Below are positions 26,965 to 36,587 of a DNA stretch of 64,000 nucleotides, piece after piece. The stretch is from Escherichia phage MIZ4: sequence record OR167180; one strand, given 5' to 3'. The notes beneath the pieces were generated by a model. It was not told the origin of the DNA. It saw only the letters and a program-made list of their open reading frames with translations, and made no database searches. Position 1 is the stretch's first letter. Every line of letters begins with the position of its first letter. Both the position numbers and the translations under genes were made by a program.

Positions 26965-26974
26965 TAAGCGAAAG

Positions 26975-26999
26975 GCGGGGATTATCCCCGCCTTTTTAT
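26975..26999. terminator. Bidirectional rho-independent terminator
   Basis: AAAGGCGGGGA-TTAT-CCCCGCCTTTTT between convergent gene 54 and the lipoprotein gene. Confidence 0.7.
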
Positions 27000-27481
27000 T
27001 TTGCTAAATCATTGCAATATTTTAGTGCCTTAGTTTGAAATTCTGCGCTGTTAAGTTCTTCATAACGGTCATAATCACCGTTTAATGCTGCCTTTCTTGC
27101 TTCTTGCTCTATCTGCATGTCAGACATGATAATACAGCGATCCCGTGCTTTCATCTTCTCAAGTTGTATAGACTCTTCTTTCTGCTTGCGCAATTCTTCT
27201 TGACGCTTCTTTTCTTCTTGTGCTTTCTCTTCCCGCGCTTCTTTGATTGCATCCTTGAACATCTGCGTTTGTGGTGCTAAACCAACTTTAACGCGATCCA
27301 CGTCTCGACGTTCCATTTTAGAAATAAAGCATGATTCGATCTGATCATCACTTGCATATGCTGCTTTACATTCACGAAGTAAGAAAACCGGATCTGATTT
27401 AGCATTCATCATAGCTTCCATGTTGGCACAACCAGTAAGCATGAATGCAGCCGCAAGACCAATCAGTTTAATCATTTTCAT
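26996..27481 (-). CDS. Predicted lipoprotein (161 aa) with charged coiled-coil region
   Basis: N-terminal signal peptide ending in lipobox LTGC; Lys/Glu-rich helical middle. Confidence 0.65.
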   Translation of the reverse strand: MKMIKLIGLAAAFMLTGCANMEAMMNAKSDPVFLLRECKAAYASDDQIESCFISKMERRDVDRVKVGLAPQTQMFKDAIKEAREEKAQEEKKRQEELRKQKEESIQLEKMKARDRCIIMSDMQIEQEARKAALNGDYDRYEELNSAEFQTKALKYCNDLAK

Positions 27482-28302
27482 TTAGTCACCTCACCGAAAA
27501 TTGTAAATTGTCTACGATTCTCATCGCCGAAAGATTCTACTACGTCGTTTACCTTGACGCAAGTCCCGCGCGGTAAAATTACTTCACATTCGCAAGGGTT
27601 CCATGCAATTGACCCAACAACAAAACCTTTATGATCTTTTACGTCAATTACCCATGATACATTACAAGAATGTTGCATCTTTCCGGTCATTGATTCATAT
27701 CGATTCTCACAATAAAGGCTAGTGCTGTTTGATAGCCATCCTCCAAAGATGATTGGTGTCATGCTGGTTGACACAAAGTTTTTAAAGGTAAATTCCTTAT
27801 CTTCAATAATACGCTCTATTGTCTGAATGTCAAGATGTTGACCGCGATAAAGAGTACCGTTTAACTTTTCGGTTTTATCCATGACACAATCCATCAAATC
27901 AACAATCTCTGATATCTCATCGGTCATGTCTTCTTCCCCTAAGAGAGCACCATTTACCCATTCGTATTGTTCAGACACATAATCACAGATTGCATTATAT
28001 TCTGCTGGGGGTATGTTGTTATGTTTGTAATGTTTGAATACATTATCTCCAAAGTCTTCGGAGTGTACTTCATACATCACATTAATGATTTTCTTGACAA
28101 ATCCATAATCTTGTGTCTCGCGCTCAAGGAAGCGGATAACCTTCACATAATCATCAAAGTTAATCTGATCGCTGATCATCTCAGTGATCATGTAACCATT
28201 AATCCCCTCAATGTCATATGTTTCAATATAATTGTCCATACGTTCCATCATTGATTCGCGTGATTCTTCCGAAAGACGAAAATCCTGTAATTTCTTGAAC
28301 AT
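27478..28302 (-). CDS. ADP-ribosyltransferase, short Alt paralog (274 aa)
   Basis: R-S-E triad motifs LYRG, FVSTS, CECEVILPRG; alignable to the C-terminal domain of the adjacent Alt. Confidence 0.75.
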   Translation of the reverse strand: MFKKLQDFRLSEESRESMMERMDNYIETYDIEGINGYMITEMISDQINFDDYVKVIRFLERETQDYGFVKKIINVMYEVHSEDFGDNVFKHYKHNNIPPAEYNAICDYVSEQYEWVNGALLGEEDMTDEISEIVDLMDCVMDKTEKLNGTLYRGQHLDIQTIERIIEDKEFTFKNFVSTSMTPIIFGGWLSNSTSLYCENRYESMTGKMQHSCNVSWVIDVKDHKGFVVGSIAWNPCECEVILPRGTCVKVNDVVESFGDENRRQFTIFGEVTK

Positions 28303-28380
28303 TTTAAACCTCCCATATAACAGAAAACGGGGCTAGTATAAAACTAGTCCCCGTTTGAGTCAACCATTATTTCTTAAAAA

Positions 28381-30432
28381 TTACATTTTAAATTTATCTG
28401 GCATTGCGTCTACAGATACCAGATCAGCGATAAGCTGACGTAGAGTTGCCTTATCTGCTTTCTTACGTTCGGTTTTAGCTTCGCTAATGAAGCTGGAGAA
28501 AGACAGGTCAGAAGCAGGTTTAACAACACCCTCACGGATGAATGCATCACCGTCCGCGATCATTTCGCCAGATTCTTGTAATGCTGCCAGTTCATTTTTG
28601 TTCATAATATGTGCCTCAATGTAATAAGTTTCTTGTGAATCTGTCGATGCCGTAGCACGAGTTACCGTATCAAAGGATAACACAACACCGCGAGGAAGTA
28701 AAATCTCGCATTCTTTGTAAGCAAATGCTTTGTTACCTACTGGCAAGACAGGGATGTTTTCCGCGCCAGCAATGGAGAAAGCAACATTAGCGCCACCTTC
28801 ACCGCGAGAGCCAGCCATAGAATCAACACCAGCAACGGCACTAGCCACGTTTGCATTCCAGCCGCCAAAAATGTTAGGTGCAAGGGAAGTGCTCACATAG
28901 TTTTTAAAGTAAAACGCTTTTTGCTTACGTGCAGTTTCCCACATTTGCGACCGGAAGTCCATACCACGATACAGAATAGTACCCGGATCAAGTTTAACGC
29001 CATAGTTGGAGAAGGCATTATCCAGTGCATCGCACATCTTGACCAATTCTTCTGGATCTGAGATTCCTTCAAACTCTTCCAGCTTACGGTCGGTTAGGAA
29101 GTTGTTCATATTGATGTATGCTGCATCGGCATATTCGCTCAACACAAAACCTTCCGCGCCTGGCAGATCAAGATCAATATCTGCCATCATTTCACCCATG
29201 TTGCTAGCAATTGCTTCAAACATACCGGACGCAACATTACGAAGGGCATCGGTTTTAATCTGGGTGATATGACTACGCAGCATTTCAGCTTTTACATCTG
29301 CTGGCATAGACTGGTCTACTCGATCCATTGCCAGGGCGGTGATCTTGTTTTCGAATACTTCCTCGCTCATGATTTCTTTTAAGCGTTTGATTGATGCTGC
29401 GATAACTTCCGCAGACAACGGATCATATTGATCCTGAACTTTTACCAGTTCGCTTACTGCGTATTTTGCATCTGCTTCGCTTTCAAAAATAGTACGCATG
29501 AAACCATAGCGAGTGATAATATCACTTGTCCAGTCATTCAGAGAACGGGCGGTTGAACGTTCTAAGGCTTGACGGTCAATCAGAGTATTAAACTGTTTCT
29601 TAGGTTCGGCTTCGGTGATATCTTCTTCCGGTTTAAGATTAATTTTTTCTGGATGATTCACGTAGTCGCTGTTATAGGTCGCTTGAGTTTTCAGCATTTC
29701 TTCTTTAGTCAAACGAGATTTAGCCGCTACGCGTTGTTCTGCTTCCGCGTTTCGTTCTTCTTCTGACACAAGACTAGCCGCATATGCCTCATCTTTAGTC
29801 AGAGATTCACCCGTAGCCTTAGATACCCAGCGATCACCTAAATCACTTTCTACTTTGGTGAACAAGGATTCATCAAGTTTAATCCCTTTAATCTTATCAA
29901 TCGCCATCCCGCGACGTTTGACAACAACTAAAGCGATCTTTTTGCTGGTCATTACTTCCTGCTGGAATACTTCAAACTTCGGTGTACGACGCACCAAACG
30001 CTCTATAACGCGCTTAACCAGTTCGGTCTTACCTTTCATGCGGGATACGTTAAAACGGAACATAACAGCGTCTAATTGCGCTTTACGGGCTGTTTCCATA
30101 ACCACATCAAACGCACTTGCCATAACTGCAATCGGGTTATCGCCTAGACCATTTTTAAGTTGTACAATACGACCGCTTTTGTTCATTTCGCACAGTACAA
30201 CATGTGCGGTTTTGTCACCCATACGAATGATTTTAGGTGTTTTGTTGGTGAAGTTACAAAGACGGACAATCACATCTTTATCGCGTGTCTGTACTGCAAA
30301 AAGCTGTTTAGGATTCTGCTTAGGCTTTAAGCACTGTACCGGAGCAATACTGCCAAAGTTTTCTTCCTCTTCCGTCAACAGCCATTTCTCGAAAGATTCA
30401 ATCATTAGATCGTCGATTTCTAAGTTAAACAT
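28381..30432 (-). CDS. alt: Alt ADP-ribosyltransferase (683 aa)
   Basis: Size and position as T4 Alt (682 aa); motifs ILYRG, YVSTS, ECEILLPRG. Confidence 0.9.
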   Translation of the reverse strand: MFNLEIDDLMIESFEKWLLTEEEENFGSIAPVQCLKPKQNPKQLFAVQTRDKDVIVRLCNFTNKTPKIIRMGDKTAHVVLCEMNKSGRIVQLKNGLGDNPIAVMASAFDVVMETARKAQLDAVMFRFNVSRMKGKTELVKRVIERLVRRTPKFEVFQQEVMTSKKIALVVVKRRGMAIDKIKGIKLDESLFTKVESDLGDRWVSKATGESLTKDEAYAASLVSEEERNAEAEQRVAAKSRLTKEEMLKTQATYNSDYVNHPEKINLKPEEDITEAEPKKQFNTLIDRQALERSTARSLNDWTSDIITRYGFMRTIFESEADAKYAVSELVKVQDQYDPLSAEVIAASIKRLKEIMSEEVFENKITALAMDRVDQSMPADVKAEMLRSHITQIKTDALRNVASGMFEAIASNMGEMMADIDLDLPGAEGFVLSEYADAAYINMNNFLTDRKLEEFEGISDPEELVKMCDALDNAFSNYGVKLDPGTILYRGMDFRSQMWETARKQKAFYFKNYVSTSLAPNIFGGWNANVASAVAGVDSMAGSRGEGGANVAFSIAGAENIPVLPVGNKAFAYKECEILLPRGVVLSFDTVTRATASTDSQETYYIEAHIMNKNELAALQESGEMIADGDAFIREGVVKPASDLSFSSFISEAKTERKKADKATLRQLIADLVSVDAMPDKFKM

Positions 30433-30473
30433 TTTATATCCTCTAGTTGATAACCTATAAACCTATATTTATG

Positions 30474-30499
30474 AAAAAGGGGCTTAACGCCCCCTTTTA
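30474..30499. terminator. Hairpin terminator between the small-gene array and alt
   Basis: AAAAAGGGG-CTTAACG-CCCCTTTT. Confidence 0.5.
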
Positions 30500-30712: not shown

Positions 30713-30748
30713 TTGATACTCCTTAGTAGTTCGTTTCGGTATGTGTGC

Positions 30749-30777
30749 ATTATAGGGGATCACCGATCCCCTGTCAA
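30749..30777 (-). promoter_or_regulatory. Sigma70-type early promoter cassette
   Basis: Minus strand TTGACA-17 nt-TATAAT; spacer is the palindrome GGGGATC-GGT-GATCCCC; approx coordinates. Confidence 0.65.
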
Positions 30778-30791
30778 CAACTTTTTTAAAA

Positions 30792-31073: not shown

Positions 31074-31106
31074 TTTTGATTCTCCAGTTCGTTTCGGTAT
31101 GTGTGT

Positions 31107-31135
31107 ATTATGCTATGTTCTTACTTTGGTGTCAA
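31107..31135 (-). promoter_or_regulatory. Sigma70-type early promoter cassette
   Basis: Minus strand TTGACA-17-CATAAT followed by the conserved ACACACATACCGAAACGA leader. Confidence 0.6.
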
Positions 31136-31143
31136 CAACTTTT

Positions 31144-31413
31144 TTAGATATTTTCAGAAATAAATTTTAAAACTTGACGTAAATGTTTCTCATCTTTGAT
31201 AGTCGCCGGAAGTTCTTCTTTTACTTCCTGTGCAAGATAGATATTTCCGTTCCAAGTGAAAGATCCGTCTTCGTTTACGCGATAGCTGAACATCCACTCG
31301 CAATCATTTTCGATTTCATATACACACAGAATGGTGTAATCTTCAAAGCTATTGATTTCAAGGTCGAAGCCGTGACGTTTTGCAAAGTTGGTAGTGGTTT
31401 TAGTCAGTGCCAT
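31144..31413 (-). CDS. Hypothetical small protein (89 aa)
   Basis: ATG start with RBS; own upstream promoter cassette. Confidence 0.65.
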   Translation of the reverse strand: MALTKTTTNFAKRHGFDLEINSFEDYTILCVYEIENDCEWMFSYRVNEDGSFTWNGNIYLAQEVKEELPATIKDEKHLRQVLKFISENI

Positions 31414-31453
31414 TGTTTGATTCTCCTAAGTGGTATCTCGTTTCGATGGGTGT

Positions 31454-31482
31454 ATTATGCTATACACAGGATCTGGTGTCAA
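31454..31482 (-). promoter_or_regulatory. Sigma70-type early promoter cassette
   Basis: TTGACA-17-CATAAT, conserved leader. Confidence 0.6.
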
Positions 31483-31534
31483 CAACTTTTTTAAAAAATA
31501 GGCAATAAAAAGCCGACACTATGGTCGGCACATT

Positions 31535-31922: not shown

Positions 31923-31955
31923 CTTTATTTCCCTCAATCTCGTTTCGATGGGTGT

Positions 31956-31984
31956 ATTATGCTATAGGCGTGATCTGGTGTCAA
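31956..31984 (-). promoter_or_regulatory. Sigma70-type early promoter cassette
   Basis: TTGACA-17-CATAAT, conserved leader. Confidence 0.6.
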
Positions 31985-32042
31985 TGCCTTTTTTTAAAAT
32001 TTTATGCAATAAAAAAGCCGACACTAAGGTCGGCTAATAAAA

Positions 32043-32351
32043 TCATTTAGACAAATAATCATTCTGTGCAATCCGGTCGGCGTATGCTGGTGTTATGTCA
32101 ATCGCCAGCACTTTAACGCGTGCTTTCTTGCGACCTGGGTTTTCTCGTAACCAGTGCTCATGACCGTGAACATTTTTATACTTTGATGCTGTTTCGAAAG
32201 TACGGATCGGACCTGGGTAATCAGCGTAAAGGATCTCTAGATCTTCGGTGATGTAAAAATATACATCGTAATTGCTGTTCTCTAGCTTAAGCAGAGACTT
32301 TCGGAACATTGGGAGATTTTCGCGGGTAAATTCAAAGATATTATCTTTCAT
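32043..32351 (-). CDS. HxHW-family small protein, member 1 (102 aa)
   Basis: Shares YFYITEDLEILYADY ... HGHEHW ... KVLAIDI with five paralogs. Confidence 0.7.
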   Translation of the reverse strand: MKDNIFEFTRENLPMFRKSLLKLENSNYDVYFYITEDLEILYADYPGPIRTFETASKYKNVHGHEHWLRENPGRKKARVKVLAIDITPAYADRIAQNDYLSK

Positions 32352-32689: not shown

Positions 32690-32734
32690 AATTTGATTCT
32701 CCTAGTTAGAAAGTGTATCTCGTTTCGATGGGTG

Positions 32735-32763
32735 TATTATGCTATACACCCGATCCGTTGTCA
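32735..32763 (-). promoter_or_regulatory. Sigma70-type early promoter cassette
   Basis: TTGACA-17-CATAAT, conserved leader ACACCCATCGAAACGAGATACAC. Confidence 0.6.
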
Positions 32764-32770
32764 ACACTTT

Positions 32771-33049
32771 TTATAAAATAATTTTTTGATATTTTTCTAT
32801 GATGTTTGTGTAGGTCACATCAACCGCTAGCACCGTTGCTTCGAATCCACCGTTTAGCCAATGGCTATGATCATGATCGTGAAAGAAACCTAGACCAGTA
32901 CGAAGACCTTCTTTATATTCGGCGCGTACATTCAGTTTGTCGTCGATAAACAGATAAAACCATGAATTTTTACTAGGATTGATGATACAACCTTTCAGAT
33001 TAGGGAGAATATCACGACTAAGAATAAACTTATCACCTACTTTGAACAT
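32771..33049 (-). CDS. HxHW-family small protein, member 2 (92 aa)
   Basis: WFYLFIDDKLNV ... HDHDHSHW ... TVLAVDV; start at ATG 33049. Confidence 0.7.
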   Translation of the reverse strand: MFKVGDKFILSRDILPNLKGCIINPSKNSWFYLFIDDKLNVRAEYKEGLRTGLGFFHDHDHSHWLNGGFEATVLAVDVTYTNIIEKYQKIIL

Positions 33050-33053
33050 AATA

Positions 33054-33374
33054 TTAGTCCTCACTTATAAGGTCAAACCAATTGTTTTTAGCATAATGCT
33101 TAATGCGTGCTTGATCTGCTTCCGCTGGTGATAGATTCCATGCAACCACTACAACTTCTGACGCATCGTCATCAGTTTCTGATACCCAATGATTGTGATT
33201 CATACAGTTATTTGCTATCGAGTGAGCAAATGATTTCATCACTGGAGACGTATAATCATAGTAACGGATTTTCAGATTTTCATCAACATACAAGTAGATC
33301 GTATACGGCTTATATTCAGTAACCAGTAACAGACAGTTACGCAATTCTGGGAAAATCTTTTTAGTTAATTTCAT
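33054..33374 (-). CDS. HxHW-family small protein, member 3 (106 aa)
   Basis: YTIYLYVDENLKIRYYDY ... NHNHW ... VVVVAW; GGAGAA RBS. Confidence 0.65.
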   Translation of the reverse strand: MKLTKKIFPELRNCLLLVTEYKPYTIYLYVDENLKIRYYDYTSPVMKSFAHSIANNCMNHNHWVSETDDDASEVVVVAWNLSPAEADQARIKHYAKNNWFDLISED

Positions 33375-33576
33375 ATTCTAGTTCTCCGTAATACACGGTA
33401 ATCCATTTTTCTTCATACTTTGTATCTTTCCAACACACAATCCCGTTTACTGTGCAATCTTTGGAATTGACGAATGATTCATATTGTTCCGCATCTTCCA
33501 TCATTTCATGAGCGGTCTTTTCATCGAATATATCGCAGATCGCTTTATATGCTCGATAATCTTTAAATTTGCTCAT
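33361..33576 (-). CDS. MSKFKDY-family small protein, copy 2 (71 aa)
   Basis: Tandem paralog of 33579..33788 (MSKFKDYRAYKAI vs MSKFKDYKAYQQI). Confidence 0.6.
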   Translation of the reverse strand: MSKFKDYRAYKAICDIFDEKTAHEMMEDAEQYESFVNSKDCTVNGIVCWKDTKYEEKWITVYYGELEYEIN

Positions 33577-33578
33577 AA

Positions 33579-33788
33579 TTAACACCACTCAAGAGTTTTT
33601 GAAAACACATCTATCCATTGTTGAGTATATGCGGTTTCTTTCCATGATACAATACCAGTCGAATAATGGTTTTTGTTTCCAGAAAAGGACGGGCATTTTG
33701 ATGCATCTTCCATCATCTTTTCGGCGAACTCTGGTTCGTATACTCGCAAGATCTGTTGATATGCTTTGTAGTCTTTAAATTTGCTCAT
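33579..33788 (-). CDS. MSKFKDY-family small protein, copy 1 (69 aa)
   Basis: Tandem paralog of 33361..33576. Confidence 0.6.
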   Translation of the reverse strand: MSKFKDYKAYQQILRVYEPEFAEKMMEDASKCPSFSGNKNHYSTGIVSWKETAYTQQWIDVFSKTLEWC

Positions 33789-34053
33789 AATCGTTAACTA
33801 CCTTATCAGCTTCTTTTATTGTTTTTACATCAACTGCGATAATACGTAAAGGTTCGTCGAATGTCCACCAATGATCGTGAATATCAGCTTGTGATTTATC
33901 ACCAAAGGAATCACGAATATCATTTTTACATTTATAGCTAATGTGACCGTTATAGTCAACATAAAGGTAATTATCGAAAATCGGCGTTTTTAAGATCATA
34001 CCGAAAAATCTTTCTTTGTGTGTCTTATCCAGCGTTGCAGTAATTCGCATCAT
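33775..34053 (-). CDS. HxHW-family small protein, member 4 (92 aa)
   Basis: YLYVDYNGHISY ... IHDHWW ... RIIAVDV; AAGAGGA RBS. Confidence 0.7.
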   Translation of the reverse strand: MMRITATLDKTHKERFFGMILKTPIFDNYLYVDYNGHISYKCKNDIRDSFGDKSQADIHDHWWTFDEPLRIIAVDVKTIKEADKVVNDYEQI

Positions 34054-34477: not shown

Positions 34478-34511
34478 TTTTGATTCTCCTATATCTCGTT
34501 GGTATGTGTGT

Positions 34512-34540
34512 AGTATAGGGGATCGGTGATCCCCTGTCAA
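34512..34540 (-). promoter_or_regulatory. Sigma70-type early promoter cassette
   Basis: TTGACA-GGGGATCACCGATCCCC-TATACT. Confidence 0.6.
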
Positions 34541-34548
34541 CAACTTTT

Positions 34549-34857
34549 TTATTCTTCATCTTCATTTTTATCTTTATATGCGTACTTCATAAATTTGTCT
34601 GCTACTTTGTCCGCGTTTTCAGGTTCTACGTCTGACGCTAGGACAACAGCTAGTTCGGTTTTGTCGTTTCCATCATACCAATGATTATGAGTGTCGTTTT
34701 CTTCGATATAAAACGAATCATTTGGAGTTGTGCGACAATATACGTCTAAATTCCCATCGATATAAAAGATCCAATCCGAATACAAAATGATTGCTTTAGC
34801 CAGATTTTTATTGTCTCTTACAAAAGGTTCCGCGACAAATAGCTTAGTTTGTTCCAT
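34549..34857 (-). CDS. HxHW-family small protein, member 5 (102 aa)
   Basis: WIFYIDGNLDVY ... THNHW ... LAVVLASDV; GAGGA RBS. Confidence 0.7.
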   Translation of the reverse strand: MEQTKLFVAEPFVRDNKNLAKAIILYSDWIFYIDGNLDVYCRTTPNDSFYIEENDTHNHWYDGNDKTELAVVLASDVEPENADKVADKFMKYAYKDKNEDEE

Positions 34858-35460: not shown

Positions 35461-35640
35461 TTACATAACAATCACGCCAGCCGTTGAAAGTTGATGTTTC
35501 AACTGAGCATTTTCTGCTACCGTCAAATCAATGATTTCTTGTGACGCTGCAATCATATATCCATTGGTGATATTGTTTTGCATCAGTTCAATGGTTTCTT
35601 CGTTGTAGCGGATTTTAGCGATGATTTCGTTGAAGTTCAT
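35461..35640 (-). CDS. Hypothetical small protein (59 aa)
   Basis: Start at MNFNEIIAK; track N-terminus is the translated promoter. Confidence 0.55.
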   Translation of the reverse strand: MNFNEIIAKIRYNEETIELMQNNITNGYMIAASQEIIDLTVAENAQLKHQLSTAGVIVM

Positions 35641-35674
35641 GATTGATTCTCCTAGTTCGTTTCGGTATGTGTGT

Positions 35675-35703
35675 AGTATAGGGGATCGGTGATCCCCTGT
35701 CAA
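35675..35703 (-). promoter_or_regulatory. Sigma70-type early promoter cassette
   Basis: Identical to the cassette at 34512 (TTGACA-GGGGATCACCGATCCCC-TATACT). Confidence 0.6.
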
Positions 35704-35711
35704 CAACTTTT

Positions 35712-36023
35712 TTAAAGTTTTTCCATGATAACGGTCATAATTACATCTTCTGCGCGAGCGGTCAGATTATCAGCGTCAGGATGTGGGCGGTTGGTTGTTA
35801 CAGAGATAACACCGTTGCGCACTGGTTTGATATTGATATCAAGATGATCCGCGAAACGTTCGCCATTTACAGAATGAATTTTGGTGTTAAATTCTTTTGC
35901 CAGTGCCTTGCGAACTTCACGAATCAGGGTAGCGTTTTTCAGTTGGTTCTCCGCGCTCATGGTCTTCTGGGTGTTCATGGTTCCGTCGAAGTCAATCATT
36001 GGCAGCGTTACGATGTATTTCAT
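35712..36023 (-). CDS. KEFN-family small protein, member B (103 aa)
   Basis: Paralog of 32402..32689; conserved GGAGAATCAAAA leader. Confidence 0.65.
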   Translation of the reverse strand: MKYIVTLPMIDFDGTMNTQKTMSAENQLKNATLIREVRKALAKEFNTKIHSVNGERFADHLDINIKPVRNGVISVTTNRPHPDADNLTARAEDVIMTVIMEKL

Positions 36024-36068: not shown

Positions 36069-36098
36069 ATTATAAGGGGATCACCGATCCCCTGTCAA
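36069..36098 (-). promoter_or_regulatory. Sigma70-type early promoter cassette
   Basis: TTGACA-GGGGATCGGTGATCCCC-T-TATAAT (18-nt spacer). Confidence 0.6.
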
Positions 36099-36110
36099 CA
36101 ACTTTTTGGA

Positions 36111-36587
36111 TTATTTTTCTTGATGCTCGCGCTCATACTTTTCGAAATAAAATTCTACTGGCTGATCGTGGATTGAAAGCAAGCCAAAGCGTTTAGCCGC
36201 TCGCAATCCCATATTGCGCTGAATGTACTTCTGGAAGTTCTCTCGTATACACTTACGCCAGTATTCTAAGCCCATACAGCTTTTATAAAGATTGCATTGT
36301 ACACACGCCGGATTCATGTTATCAAGTATATCATGTTCCGGTTTATGCATTCCTACAACCTTATACTTCCACGATCCATCATCATTACGGGCAATTCGTC
36401 CATTTTCATCATAGACTACCTTTGAGCGTCGCAATACTGGTTTGATGTGGTCTGCGTGCCAGCGATCCCCTAGTTCCTCGCCACAATAGGCACAACGTCC
36501 ACCGTATTTCATTTTCAGGATCTGGCGTTGCTCTTTCTTTGACAATTTTTTAGGTTTAGGGGCTTTCGCCCCTTCATTATCACACAT
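36111..36587 (-). CDS. HNH endonuclease (158 aa)
   Basis: CAYCG ... WHADHIKP ... NMNPACVQCN; overlaps the 3' end of the ligase gene by 8 nt. Confidence 0.75.
   Translation of the reverse strand: MCDNEGAKAPKPKKLSKKEQRQILKMKYGGRCAYCGEELGDRWHADHIKPVLRRSKVVYDENGRIARNDDGSWKYKVVGMHKPEHDILDNMNPACVQCNLYKSCMGLEYWRKCIRENFQKYIQRNMGLRAAKRFGLLSIHDQPVEFYFEKYEREHQEK

Follow-up and report, generated by a model that had tools for sequence, protein, structure and literature searches.

RB49-like phages carry, directly downstream of alt, a 274-aa ADP-ribosyltransferase (ART) that consists of little more than the catalytic part of Alt, retains the complete R-S-E triad, forms an old lineage of its own and is preceded by expression signals of a different type from those of alt. 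We propose, with a probability of roughly 0.65, that this short ART is an early enzyme, driven by a host-type promoter and not packaged into the virion, which would modify arginine residues of host proteins.

Two ADP-ribosyltransferase genes in tandem

The window (64,000 nucleotides of sequence record OR167180, Escherichia phage MIZ4) comes from an RB49-like Krischvirus, called MIZ5 in our comparisons. A preliminary description of this DNA had placed alt and a short ORF next to each other, and both ORFs exist exactly as it gave them, on the minus strand and with 683 and 274 codons for amino acids. The genes and domains are as follows.

28381..30432, minus strand: alt, full-length Alt-like RNA polymerase ADP-ribosyltransferase, 683 aa (ORF list; phrog_802 match)
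28660..29169, minus strand: ART catalytic domain of Alt, residues about 422-591 (alignments, Pfam)
27478..28302, minus strand: short Alt-like ADP-ribosyltransferase, 274 aa, ortholog of RB49ORF183c, phrog_15144 (ORF list; PHROG)
27541..28023, minus strand: ART core of the short protein, residues 94-254 (alignments)
26996..27481, minus strand: lipoprotein-like ORF, 161 aa, ortholog of RB49ORF182c (ORF list; phrog_16112, unknown function)

The window Alt matches phrog_802 with residues 16-683 (E 7e-180). It is 27% identical to T4 Alt over 695 aa (E 1e-60), and T4 alt.-1/alt.-2 match the N-terminal part of it. The short protein matches phrog_15144 ('ADP-ribosyltransferase') with residues 1-274 on profile positions 1-274 of 274 (E 1e-197). 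All 58 Krischvirus-type records that match the locus (58/58) contain the short gene, and a relative with a 43%-identical short ART retains the gene order (alt - short ART - lipoprotein ORF - gene 54). A word-indexed search returned only 8-9 homologous proteins; as such a search is insufficient to establish family size, it is the exhaustive profile search that shows the family to be really small. Across the whole genome, the ART census consists of Alt, the short ART and one ModB-like gene (in record coordinates 86585-87088 in one search and, as a gene of 167 aa, 86588-87133 in another). NCBIfam has no model for any of these three MIZ5 ARTs, nor for the lipoprotein ORF.

The novelty implied by the preliminary description does not hold. 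The short ORF is RB49ORF183c, so the gene has been known in RB49-like phages since 2003, when it was annotated; its GenBank label reads "similar to C-terminal part of T4 Alt protein", Nolan et al. (2006) discussed it as a paralogous duplication of alt, and RefSeq calls it ADP-ribosyltransferase. The remark that T4 has no ART directly downstream of alt is correct in a narrow sense, T4 having only alt.-1/alt.-2 there, which contain no ART domain. Since tandem paralogs of alt are a common theme in T4-like phages, a specialist would not be surprised by one more. Our literature search found no biochemical characterisation of the short ART of any kind, including as a non-catalytic protein, and no RNA-seq, transcriptome or virion proteome of any RB49-like phage.

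The ATG of the lipoprotein ORF overlaps the stop codon of the short gene (ATGA), which suggests that the two are probably co-transcribed and translationally coupled. The lipoprotein ORF has a lipobox (LTGC) and four invariant cysteines, which it shares with homologs of 41% identity at the same position. We considered whether it forms a toxin/immunity pair with the short ART, but this is unlikely, because a lipoprotein with signal peptide and conserved cysteines points to a location outside the cytoplasm.

An intact catalytic domain

Three kinds of comparison relate the short protein to the catalytic region of Alt, in agreement with what had been read from the sequence before. BLASTP aligns residues 96-257 with Alt 422-593 (32% identity, 174 aa, E 7e-17), hhalign aligns residues 94-254 with Alt 422-590 (probability 99%, E 6e-18), and both proteins score above the gathering cut-off (23.4 bits) of Pfam PF03496 (ADPrib_exo_Tox), with 56.8 bits for the short protein (residues 82-266 on profile 2-187/196) and 37.8 bits for Alt. 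Similarity extends to T4 Alt (31% identity over 180 aa, E 2e-22) and to phrog_802 (E 5e-45), where the match begins only at profile position 330 of 674. The motifs quoted in the preliminary description are present: LYRG (R153), FVSTS (S178-T-S180) and CECEVILPRG (E238-C-E240) in the short protein, and LYRG (R489), YVSTS (S514-T-S516) and ECEILLPRG (E574-C-E576) in the window Alt. The aromatic-R pair (Y152-R153), S178-T179-S180 and E238-C-E240 thus follow each other in R-S-E order, and T4 Alt, a head-packaged NAD:arginine mono-ADP-ribosyltransferase (phrog_802), has the same R, S-T-S and E-x-E motifs.

R153, S178-T-S180 and E238-x-E240 are invariant among six members of the short family down to 41% identity, and the same residues are invariant in a 10-sequence alignment that includes Alt. 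About 70 further positions outside the catalytic motifs are invariant in the short family over the same range. Synonymous differences far outnumber nonsynonymous ones in the short gene (12:1, 6:1 and 18:0 for the pairs among MIZ5, GEC-3S and RB49), and dN/dS for these phages, at 0.02-0.04, equals that of alt itself. In every RB49-like phage sampled, strong purifying selection acts on the short ART.

A sequence search of the PDB with the short protein yielded insignificant matches only (Tre1, E 0.15; SpvB, E 0.37), so that a comparison of folds was needed. The AlphaFold2 model has a pLDDT of 87.3 and a pTM of 0.85, with low confidence (pLDDT about 60) for residues 181-208. Foldseek aligned it over about 220 columns, with E values of 1e-10 to 1e-8, to Vis, C3bot2, Certhrax, CDTa, C3lim, Plx2A and iota-Ia; for Vis, C3bot2, Certhrax, CDTa and iota-Ia the probability is 1.00, and the target-normalised TM-score of the predicted model is about 0.6. 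As modelled, the short protein is an R-S-E ADP-ribosyltransferase with a C3/VIP2-like ART fold of N-terminal helices and a mixed beta core. The C3-like and binary-toxin ARTs (Vis, C3bot, C3lim, Certhrax, Plx2A, CDTa, iota-Ia, C2-I; PF03496) share the predicted fold and the triad, but they are only 13-20% identical to the short ART, and they are secreted by bacteria and act on eukaryotic proteins, whereas the short ART is a phage protein that would act inside a bacterium.

These data also bear on the idea that the short ORF is what remains of a duplicated alt, decaying or no longer catalytic, with no enzymatic role or only one in binding or as a decoy. There is precedent, since duplicated segments of alt have decayed into small ORFs in T4, and the short protein is, after all, a truncated Alt. 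T4 alt.-1/alt.-2 are likewise products of alt duplication immediately downstream of alt. However, they are N-terminal copies, 56-62% identical to Alt residues 1-117, broken by a stop codon and devoid of an ART domain, whereas the Krischvirus ORF is intact and represents the other, catalytic part of Alt. A dN/dS equal to that of alt, the invariance of the three motifs and of the other conserved positions, the complete ART fold of the model, a strong Shine-Dalgarno sequence with a predicted promoter of its own, and the presence of the gene in every RB49-like record matched all speak against decay, and we regard it as highly improbable. The short protein is apparently an active enzyme, and the core of the original reading, Alt followed by a short catalytic-domain paralog with intact triad, is supported by sequence comparison and model alike.

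An old, separate lineage

The short protein covers about residues 315-600 of Alt. Missing from it are the N-terminal approximately 315 residues with the domain of about 300 aa (PF26846, Tevenvirinae_ADPRT), the part copied in T4 alt.-1/alt.-2, and it has no similarity to alt.-1/alt.-2; PF26846 is found only in the neighbouring proteins of 668-697 aa and not in the short ARTs. At the other end it stops 34 residues past E240 and is without the C-terminal tail of about 90 residues, whose conserved closing motif (M/L)P-x-KF occurs in MIZ5 Alt, T4 Alt, P0007 and P0008 and is absent from all members of the short family.

In a midpoint-rooted neighbour-joining tree of 172 columns, the short ARTs form a clade with 100% bootstrap, and all full-length Alts together with the second copies of T-even phages form another (79.5%) that excludes them. 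The short ARTs are, by this tree, an old and separately evolving subfamily. Recent copying of the neighbouring alt is rejected: T4 Alt is a better match for the short protein (86 bits) than the Alt encoded next to it (67 bits), and the tree disagrees. Neither the T-even 'altb' copies nor a short ART of an Aeromonas phage (UP87, 294 aa) group with the Krischvirus clade, so a shared origin with either was dismissed.

Second copies of alt lie downstream of alt in T2 (EcT2_00208), JS10 (altb) and SP18 (altb), in split form in CF1 (392 + 315 aa), a metagenomic Tequatrovirus (273 + 415 aa) and Acinetobacter phage ZZ1, and 6phi13 also has its alt paralogs downstream of alt. Like the short ART, the T-even second copies are ART paralogs directly downstream of alt, and different targets have been suggested for them too. 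They differ in being full-length, or split full-length, rather than a single short ORF, in beginning 3 nt past the alt stop with no promoter or terminator in between, where the short ART has a cassette of its own, and in forming their own clade (98.5% bootstrap).

The comparison with Alt, ModA and ModB that had been suggested earlier places the short ART with Alt, in its separate clade, and reveals no detectable similarity to the Mod enzymes: BLASTP gives E 5.5 for ModA and no match for ModB, and phmmer with ModA or ModB as query finds only the 167-aa gene. By predicted function, T4 ModA and ModB (200 and 207 aa) are nevertheless the closest analogy, as early, non-packaged, stand-alone R-S-E ARTs. 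The T4 mod genes adjoin srd, whereas the short ART is at a different locus, beside alt.

Expression signals of the two genes

The signals that we identified around the two genes are these.

30474..30498, minus strand: intrinsic-terminator-like hairpin and T-run upstream of alt, dividing alt from the upstream early ORFs (fold)
30466..30473, minus strand: late-promoter-like box CATAAATA, with one mismatch to the T4 late box TATAAATA; its start is 41 nt ahead of the ATG of alt (sequence)
28335..28363, minus strand: sigma-70-type promoter TTGACT-17-TATACT in the alt/short-ART spacer, -35 at 28358-28363 and -10 at 28335-28340 (scan, 10/12 matches)
28325..28356, minus strand: G-tract/C-tract stem-loop followed by UUUUCUGU, overlapping the promoter spacer and the -10 box; with the promoter, a putative PeSL-type cassette (fold)
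28309..28314, minus strand: Shine-Dalgarno sequence GGGAGG, 6 nt ahead of the start codon of the short ART (sequence)
26970..26996, no strand assigned: bidirectional terminator where the lipoprotein ORF and gene 54 converge (fold; annotation)

Upstream of alt, an exact TATAAATA is absent. We accept the box with one mismatch because the same position is occupied in seven other lineages: T4, T2, JS10, CF1, KP182, Apostate and L007 have [T/C/A]ATAAATA at the equivalent site, 28-41 nt before the alt ATG and after a hairpin, which brings the lineages with a late-type box before alt to eight with MIZ5. ATAAATA occurs only three times on the entire minus strand of the window. CATAAATA is a putative late promoter of alt. 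The hairpin that precedes it (-15.3 kcal/mol, z -3.5) is listed as terminator 'alt<--RB49ORF185c' in the supplement of Nolan et al. (2006). The short ART shares with T4 alt its genomic neighbourhood, between gene 30-side early genes and gene 54. T4 alt has a late-type box; in the short ART, which falls outside the clade of all full-length Alts, a sigma-70-type promoter takes its place.

Upstream of the short gene, no late-type box is found in MIZ5 or in L007. The sigma-70-type promoter is marked at the same site in the GEC-3S record, is conserved as TTGACA-17-TATACT in L007 (short ART 43% identical), and was predicted in RB49 as early promoter Pe:112388 (Nolan et al., 2006, supplement). In that early-promoter model it scores a low 9.3 where neighbouring promoters reach 33-39, and may therefore be weak. 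The spacer stem-loop (-18.9 kcal/mol, z -3.8) has a counterpart in L007 (-18.8, z -4.0) in which the distal stem has changed from CTAG/CTAG to CAG/CTG with the pairing kept. The terminator on the gene 54 side (-19.6 kcal/mol, z -4.1) is annotated in GEC-3S and listed by Nolan et al. (2006, supplement) as '54-><-RB49ORF182c'.

The spacer resembles the promoter-early stem-loop (PeSL) cassettes described for RB49 and phi1 (Arbiol et al., 2010, PMC2839356; Comeau et al., 2014, PMC4122927). Every component listed in the definition (PMC2839356) is present: the stop codon of the gene before lies in an AT-rich tract, the sigma-70 -35 and -10 boxes are separated by 17 nt, and a stem-loop with G and C tracts, a Shine-Dalgarno sequence and an ATG complete the element. 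A stem-loop that overlaps the -10 box is one of the two commonest PeSL subclasses. The element is not a copy, in sequence, of the repeated PeSL family found upstream of neighbouring small ORFs. The PeSL authors counted 51 PeSLs in RB49, and promoter and terminator activity was established by experiment for others in RB49/phi1 (193/192, 206/205 and the stem-loop of 211/210). The short gene thus fits the definition of a gene behind a predicted PeSL-type cassette, with the -10 box inside the terminator hairpin.

Could the short ART instead be a late enzyme, expressed by read-through from the late alt transcript and packaged as a second injected effector of the head? Its position immediately downstream of alt on the same strand would allow this, as would the low score of its promoter in one model. 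The second alt copies of T2 and JS10, which lack signals of their own and have full Alt architecture, are presumed to be late and packaged, and about 44% of phage ARTs lie in contexts that suggest head packaging (PMC9503650). Against this stand the strong hairpin and T-run between the two genes, conserved in a diverged relative, a near-consensus sigma-70 promoter with no late-type box, the lack of the N-terminal region and C-terminal tail common to full-length Alts and T-even second copies, and the phylogenetic distance from these copies. The missing N-terminal domain is in itself no proof against packaging, as the capsid-targeting sequence of T4 has been described for internal proteins only. 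On balance, we consider a packaged late enzyme unlikely. The N-terminus of the short protein, MFKKLQDFRLSE, was examined as a capsid-targeting or prohead-protease (L-x-E) signal and discounted, since the first 20 or so residues are unconserved in the family and so short a motif is expected by chance.

A model for the short enzyme

We propose a model in which the two paralogs are expressed at different times. Alt would be made from its late-type promoter and, by homology to T4 Alt, is presumably packaged and injected. The stem-loop terminator of the cassette would stop transcripts that arrive from alt, while the sigma-70 promoter inside the same stem-loop would start a new transcript with the short ART and the lipoprotein gene. 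The position of the short gene behind a terminator and a sigma-70 promoter of its own makes early synthesis by unmodified host RNA polymerase most likely, as for ModA and ModB in T4, and the protein is most likely absent from the virion. Once made, it would use NAD+ to mono-ADP-ribosylate arginines of host proteins. The phage would thus possess three ARTs, an injected Alt, an early ModB-like enzyme and the early, Alt-derived short ART. Read-through of the terminator from the late alt transcript could express the short gene late as well.

The closest sequence relatives of the short ART are Alt proteins, which modify protein arginines, and its ExE motif is an arginine-type signature in this clade of R-S-E ARTs. 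Both argue for arginine and against a different substrate, and the sequence contains no hint of nucleic-acid binding. Nonetheless, an active ART might take another route: its donor could be NAD-capped RNA (RNAylation), its substrate could be a small molecule or a nucleic acid, or its main role could be against a host defence system. The best structural match of the model is the Vis toxin, which was solved with agmatine, T4 ModB transfers NAD-capped RNA (10.1101/2021.06.04.446905; PMC9503650), and the invariant family loop N192-S-T-S-L-Y-C-E-N-R-Y202 and ARTT residues W234-N235 are unlike Alt. We think such a substrate rather improbable. A target different from that of Alt among host proteins, as the preliminary description had it, is plausible, given that the ARTT-loop residues before ExE read AWNPC in the short protein and AFAYK in Alt, and given the old separate clade.

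A more specific proposal, which we make tentatively and hold to be possible but doubtful, is that the short ART does the job of ModA, completing the modification of RNA polymerase alpha at Arg265, or covers other early targets. One Mod-type enzyme of T4 would then have been replaced in Krischviruses by non-orthologous displacement, with the PeSL promoter buried in the alt terminator setting the opposite timing of the paralogs.

What our analysis adds to the earlier annotation is the invariance of the triad, the dN/dS values, the fold model, the old separate clade, and the pairing of a late-like box at alt with a PeSL-type cassette at the short gene. Phage ADP-ribosyltransferases are a classic case of host takeover via protein modification, and they have attracted renewed interest since ModB was found to attach RNA to proteins. 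In RB49-like phages the T4 trio occurs in a natural variant, with an injected Alt, a ModB-like enzyme and a stand-alone Alt-derived enzyme behind an early-type cassette. The timing and targets of the latter, if measured, would tell how the domain of a packaged effector is re-used as an early enzyme, and whether another ART lineage can supply ModA function.

The alt locus and its short paralog

Both open reading frames lie on the minus strand, at exactly the coordinates that the preliminary description had assigned to them:

28381..30432, minus strand: alt, ORF of 683 aa
27478..28302, minus strand: short ADP-ribosyltransferase (ART), ORF of 274 aa

The locus is 100% identical to that of Escherichia phage MIZ5 (OR167181.1), a Krischvirus of the RB49-like group, with the same coordinates in that record, and 57 further records match the alt/short-ART locus at 95-99% identity. 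The proposed alignment of the 274-aa ORF to the catalytic region of Alt was borne out by BLASTP (32% identity over 174 residues, E 7e-17) and by hhalign, in which residues 94-254 of the short family match Alt 422-590 with a probability of 99%. Alt and the short protein each score above the Pfam gathering threshold of PF03496 (ADP-ribosyltransferase exoenzyme), and the R-S-E motifs that had been quoted are present in both: LYRG (R153), FVSTS (S178-T-S180) and CECEVILPRG (E238-C-E240) in the short protein, and R489, S514-T-S516 and E574-C-E576 in Alt. The short protein corresponds to about Alt residues 315-600; its residues 8-268 fall on positions 330-602 of the 674 positions of the PHROG Alt profile, and an HMM of the short family matches Alt at 315-412 and 422-591. 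Compared with Alt, it lacks the N-terminal third to half, as well as a C-terminal tail of ~90 residues ending in (M/L)P-x-KF, which is retained by full-length Alts and by the second copies of T-even phages.

In six members of the short family (271-288 aa, identity down to 41%), R153, S-T-S and E-x-E are invariant together with ~70 other positions, and the triad is still invariant after Alt proteins are added to the alignment. Synonymous and nonsynonymous differences among MIZ5, GEC-3S and RB49 stand at 12:1, 6:1 and 18:0, and dN/dS of the short gene is ~0.02-0.04, the same as for alt. Such selection and conservation contradict the idea that the short ORF is a decaying remnant, which is essentially excluded. 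A confident AlphaFold2 model based on a 10-sequence alignment (pLDDT 87.3, pTM 0.85) is helical over residues 12-143, in the N-terminal part, and has its beta core at 146-272, with 181-208 as the sole uncertain loop. When this model was compared with the PDB by Foldseek, it matched Vis, C3bot2, Certhrax, CDTa, C3lim, Plx2A, iota-Ia and C2-I (probability 1.00, ~220 columns, 13-20% identity). In the R-S-E clade, E-x-E, as opposed to Q-x-E, pairs with an arginine acceptor, as for Alt, ModA and ModB. An unusual substrate, either NAD-RNA or a small molecule, is possible, but nothing specific speaks for it. All of the computational evidence says that the short protein should be a working enzyme. We infer its activity and specificity from sequence and model, and consider it very probable that it is an active R-S-E ART.

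Descent and distribution

The short protein scores higher against T4 Alt (86 bits) than against the Alt of MIZ5 (67 bits), and we therefore rejected the idea that it is a recent copy of the neighbouring alt. Neighbour joining on 172 columns of the ART core (24 sequences, 200 bootstraps) placed the short proteins in one clade and the two Krischvirus-type Alts in another, each supported at 100%, and the second alt copies of T-even phages group with 98.5%. Full-length Alts and second copies unite at 79.5%, with the short clade outside. An exhaustive profile search over 1.8 billion representatives returned just three representative clusters for the short family, at 268-425 bits; the next scores, 125 bits or less, belong to Alt proteins of 600-710 aa and a few giant multidomain proteins. 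The short family is therefore a small and old one, restricted to RB49-like phages. A metagenomic relative (L007) whose short ART has just 43% identity retains the gene order alt, short ART, ~160-aa ORF, gene 54, gene 48, gene 29. A new element of the present analysis is the evidence that the short ARTs make up an old, separate and constrained clade.

The gene itself is not new. In the original RB49 record, its ortholog RB49ORF183c carries the note "similar to C-terminal part of T4 Alt protein", and RB49ORF183c, 44RRORF188c and T4 alt.-1/alt.-2 have been described as paralogous duplications of the adjacent alt, with 44RRORF187c as a full-length duplication (Nolan et al., 2006; PMC1524935). RefSeq and Pharokka-type annotations name the short ORF "ADP-ribosyltransferase"; the protein has a PHROG of its own (phrog_15144, end-to-end match, E 1e-197), and BFVD holds the predicted structure of a 99%-identical ortholog as "RNA polymerase-ADP-ribosyltransferase". 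In our literature search, the ORF was named by Nolan et al. alone, and biochemical work on the short protein was not found. As a query against a phage collection, the short protein hit 1796 places in 1209 records. The reading of the locus as Alt plus an ART paralog was correct, but the 274-aa ORF is an already known, long annotated gene within a common theme of alt paralogy.

Paralogs in tandem with alt are common, and the arrangement is not unusual for the family. In T2, the second copy is full-length (685 aa) and begins 3 nt past alt, and JS10 has alta and altb. The second copy is in two pieces, one ORF for the N-terminal domain and one for the ART domain, in Citrobacter phage CF1 (L014 6062-8184; 392 and 315 aa) and in a metagenomic Tequatrovirus (L010 5183-7248; 273 aa for the N-terminal domain, PF26846, and 415 aa for the ART domain), and BFVD lists entries named 'split RNA polymerase ADP-ribosylase' from Acinetobacter phages. 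The formation of a stand-alone catalytic ORF by splitting of Alt is a recurrent event. T4 indeed has no such ART: just alt.-1/alt.-2 lie downstream of its alt, which share 56-62% identity with Alt residues 1-117 and differ from the short protein in having no ART domain. The suggestion of a distinct target for a second ART is matched by the same "functional divergence, expanded targets" remark in a 2026 paper on phage 6phi13, which has two Alt paralogs.

Aeromonas phage UP87 (Biquartavirus) has three Alt-family ARTs in a row (L015 3928-8717), a 294-aa short ART upstream of full-length copies of 639 and 640 aa, all annotated 'hypothetical protein'. In the neighbour-joining tree, the short ART of UP87 falls outside the Krischvirus short clade, so that Alt-like ARTs of this short, stand-alone kind probably have more than one origin.

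Control signals at the locus

Upstream of alt, a hairpin and T-run are followed by CATAAATA (30466-30473), which begins 41 nt ahead of the ATG; there is no exact TATAAATA upstream of alt. A hairpin followed by [T/C/A]ATAAATA, 28-41 nt before the alt ATG, is found in T4, T2, JS10, CF1, KP182, Apostate and L007, and the entire minus strand of the window has just three ATAAATA sites. The box sits at the position of a T4-type late promoter, which fits a protein needed during head assembly. Between this box and the alt Shine-Dalgarno sequence lies the block AGGTTATCAAC (MIZ5 30433-30465, minus strand; L007 3900-3929), which is kept in both although the flanking bases differ; in the mRNA of alt, it may serve as a leader element.

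The 78 nt that separate the short gene from alt are organised differently, with an AT-rich tract, TTGACT-17-TATACT and the Shine-Dalgarno sequence GGGAGG. A stem-loop (ACGGGGACTAG / CTAGCCCCGT; hairpin 28325-28356; -18.9 kcal/mol, z -3.8) is followed by UUUUCUGU, and its loop and 3' arm cover the -10 box. The same promoter is annotated in the GEC-3S record, and the supplement of Nolan et al. predicts an early promoter, Pe:112388, at this site, with a low score (9.3). L007 has TTGACA-17-TATACT and the same hairpin, with a distal stem that is altered yet still pairs (-18.8 kcal/mol, z -4.0). RB49/phi1 carry composite cassettes of promoter plus terminator that are called promoter-early stem-loops (PeSLs). 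In one of the two most frequent PeSL subclasses, the stem-loop overlaps the -10 box, and experiments on other copies have demonstrated both promoter and terminator activity (PMC2839356). Judged by its sequence, the alt/short-ART spacer matches the published definition.

A transcript from alt would contain both hairpin arms and should terminate, whereas a transcript from the spacer promoter would start inside or after the 3' arm and could not form the hairpin. The two paralogs would therefore be wired for separate control. In T2 and JS10, by contrast, the second alt copy lacks signals of its own. The contrast between a late-type signal for alt and a PeSL cassette for the short gene is new in the present analysis, and we put it forward as a hypothesis. 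The main rival to early synthesis without packaging is that the short ART is expressed late by read-through and packaged. We consider this quite improbable, although the short-gene promoter is possibly a weak one, terminators are leaky and absence of the Alt N-terminal domain need not preclude packaging.

An intergenic element of 64-77 nt is repeated upstream of small minus-strand ORFs in the window:

30728-30791: repeated element
31086-31149: repeated element
31433-31496: repeated element
31935-31998: repeated element
32715-32778: repeated element
34491-34554: repeated element
35638-35714: repeated element
36075-36124: repeated element

Read along the coding strand, it has the form TTGACA-GGGGATCnnnGATCCCC-TATAAT and is a sigma-70 promoter whose spacer contains a stem-loop. 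The repeats are the PeSL cassettes known from RB49/phi1, to which a role in the modular shuffling of genes and the formation of mini-circles is ascribed (PMC2839356). Small early ORFs at 32043-32351, 32771-33064 and 33054-33374 (minus strand) have a common ...Y-x-D/E-Y...H-x-H-W-L/V... pattern and look paralogous, and two adjoining ORFs have an 89-nt stretch at 72% identity over their 5' ends (33491-33579 and 33703-33791).

The gene downstream of the short ART

26996-27481, minus strand: lipoprotein-like ORF of 161 aa, ATGA overlap with the short-ART stop codon

By this overlap, the 161-aa ORF appears to be translationally coupled to the short ART; the transcription unit ends at a bidirectional terminator common to gene 54. 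The 161-aa protein (phrog_16112) combines the lipobox L-T-G-C of a lipoprotein signal with four invariant cysteines and a charged central part that resembles a coiled coil; a diverged relative has a counterpart of 41% identity at the corresponding position. The match of the 161-aa protein to the Cor superinfection-exclusion protein is weak and at signal-peptide level only. If made early, such a lipoprotein could act in exclusion or in the masking of receptors.

ART census and model

A six-frame search of the whole 165,508-bp MIZ5 genome found three ARTs, namely Alt, the short ART and one Mod-type gene:

86585-87088 of the MIZ5 record (22585-23088 of L004, a later stretch of it), minus strand: Mod-type ART, 167 aa, next to srd

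The Mod-type ART resembles T4 ModB (E 1e-9) more closely than ModA (BLASTP E 2e-5; no phmmer hit), and is N-terminally shorter than both. When expressed from plasmids in E. coli, ModA and ModB have toxic effects and Alt does not. No second mod gene was detected in the MIZ5 genome. T4 likewise has three ARTs (Alt, ModA, ModB), and the census suggests an Alt-derived enzyme in a Mod-like role; that ModA was replaced non-orthologously by an Alt derivative is a tentative idea that we rate as doubtful. The DNA polymerase (MIZ5 record 93461-97253, L004 29461-33253) is annotated as two CDS (1407 and 1209 nt) with an HNH endonuclease gene between them; in RB49/phi1, gene 43 is a PeSL-flanked, plastic locus (Arbiol et al., PMC2839356).

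We propose that Alt, by homology to T4, would be synthesized late, packaged and injected. The short ART would be made early by host RNA polymerase from the PeSL promoter and would ADP-ribosylate arginines of host proteins in an NAD+-dependent manner, Mod-like in role but of the Alt lineage by descent. We give this combined statement a probability of roughly 0.65; that the short ART is early and not packaged is less certain than that it is an active R-S-E ART. The new elements, i.e., the old clade, the contrasting signals and the three-ART census, are hypotheses for simple experiments rather than surprises.
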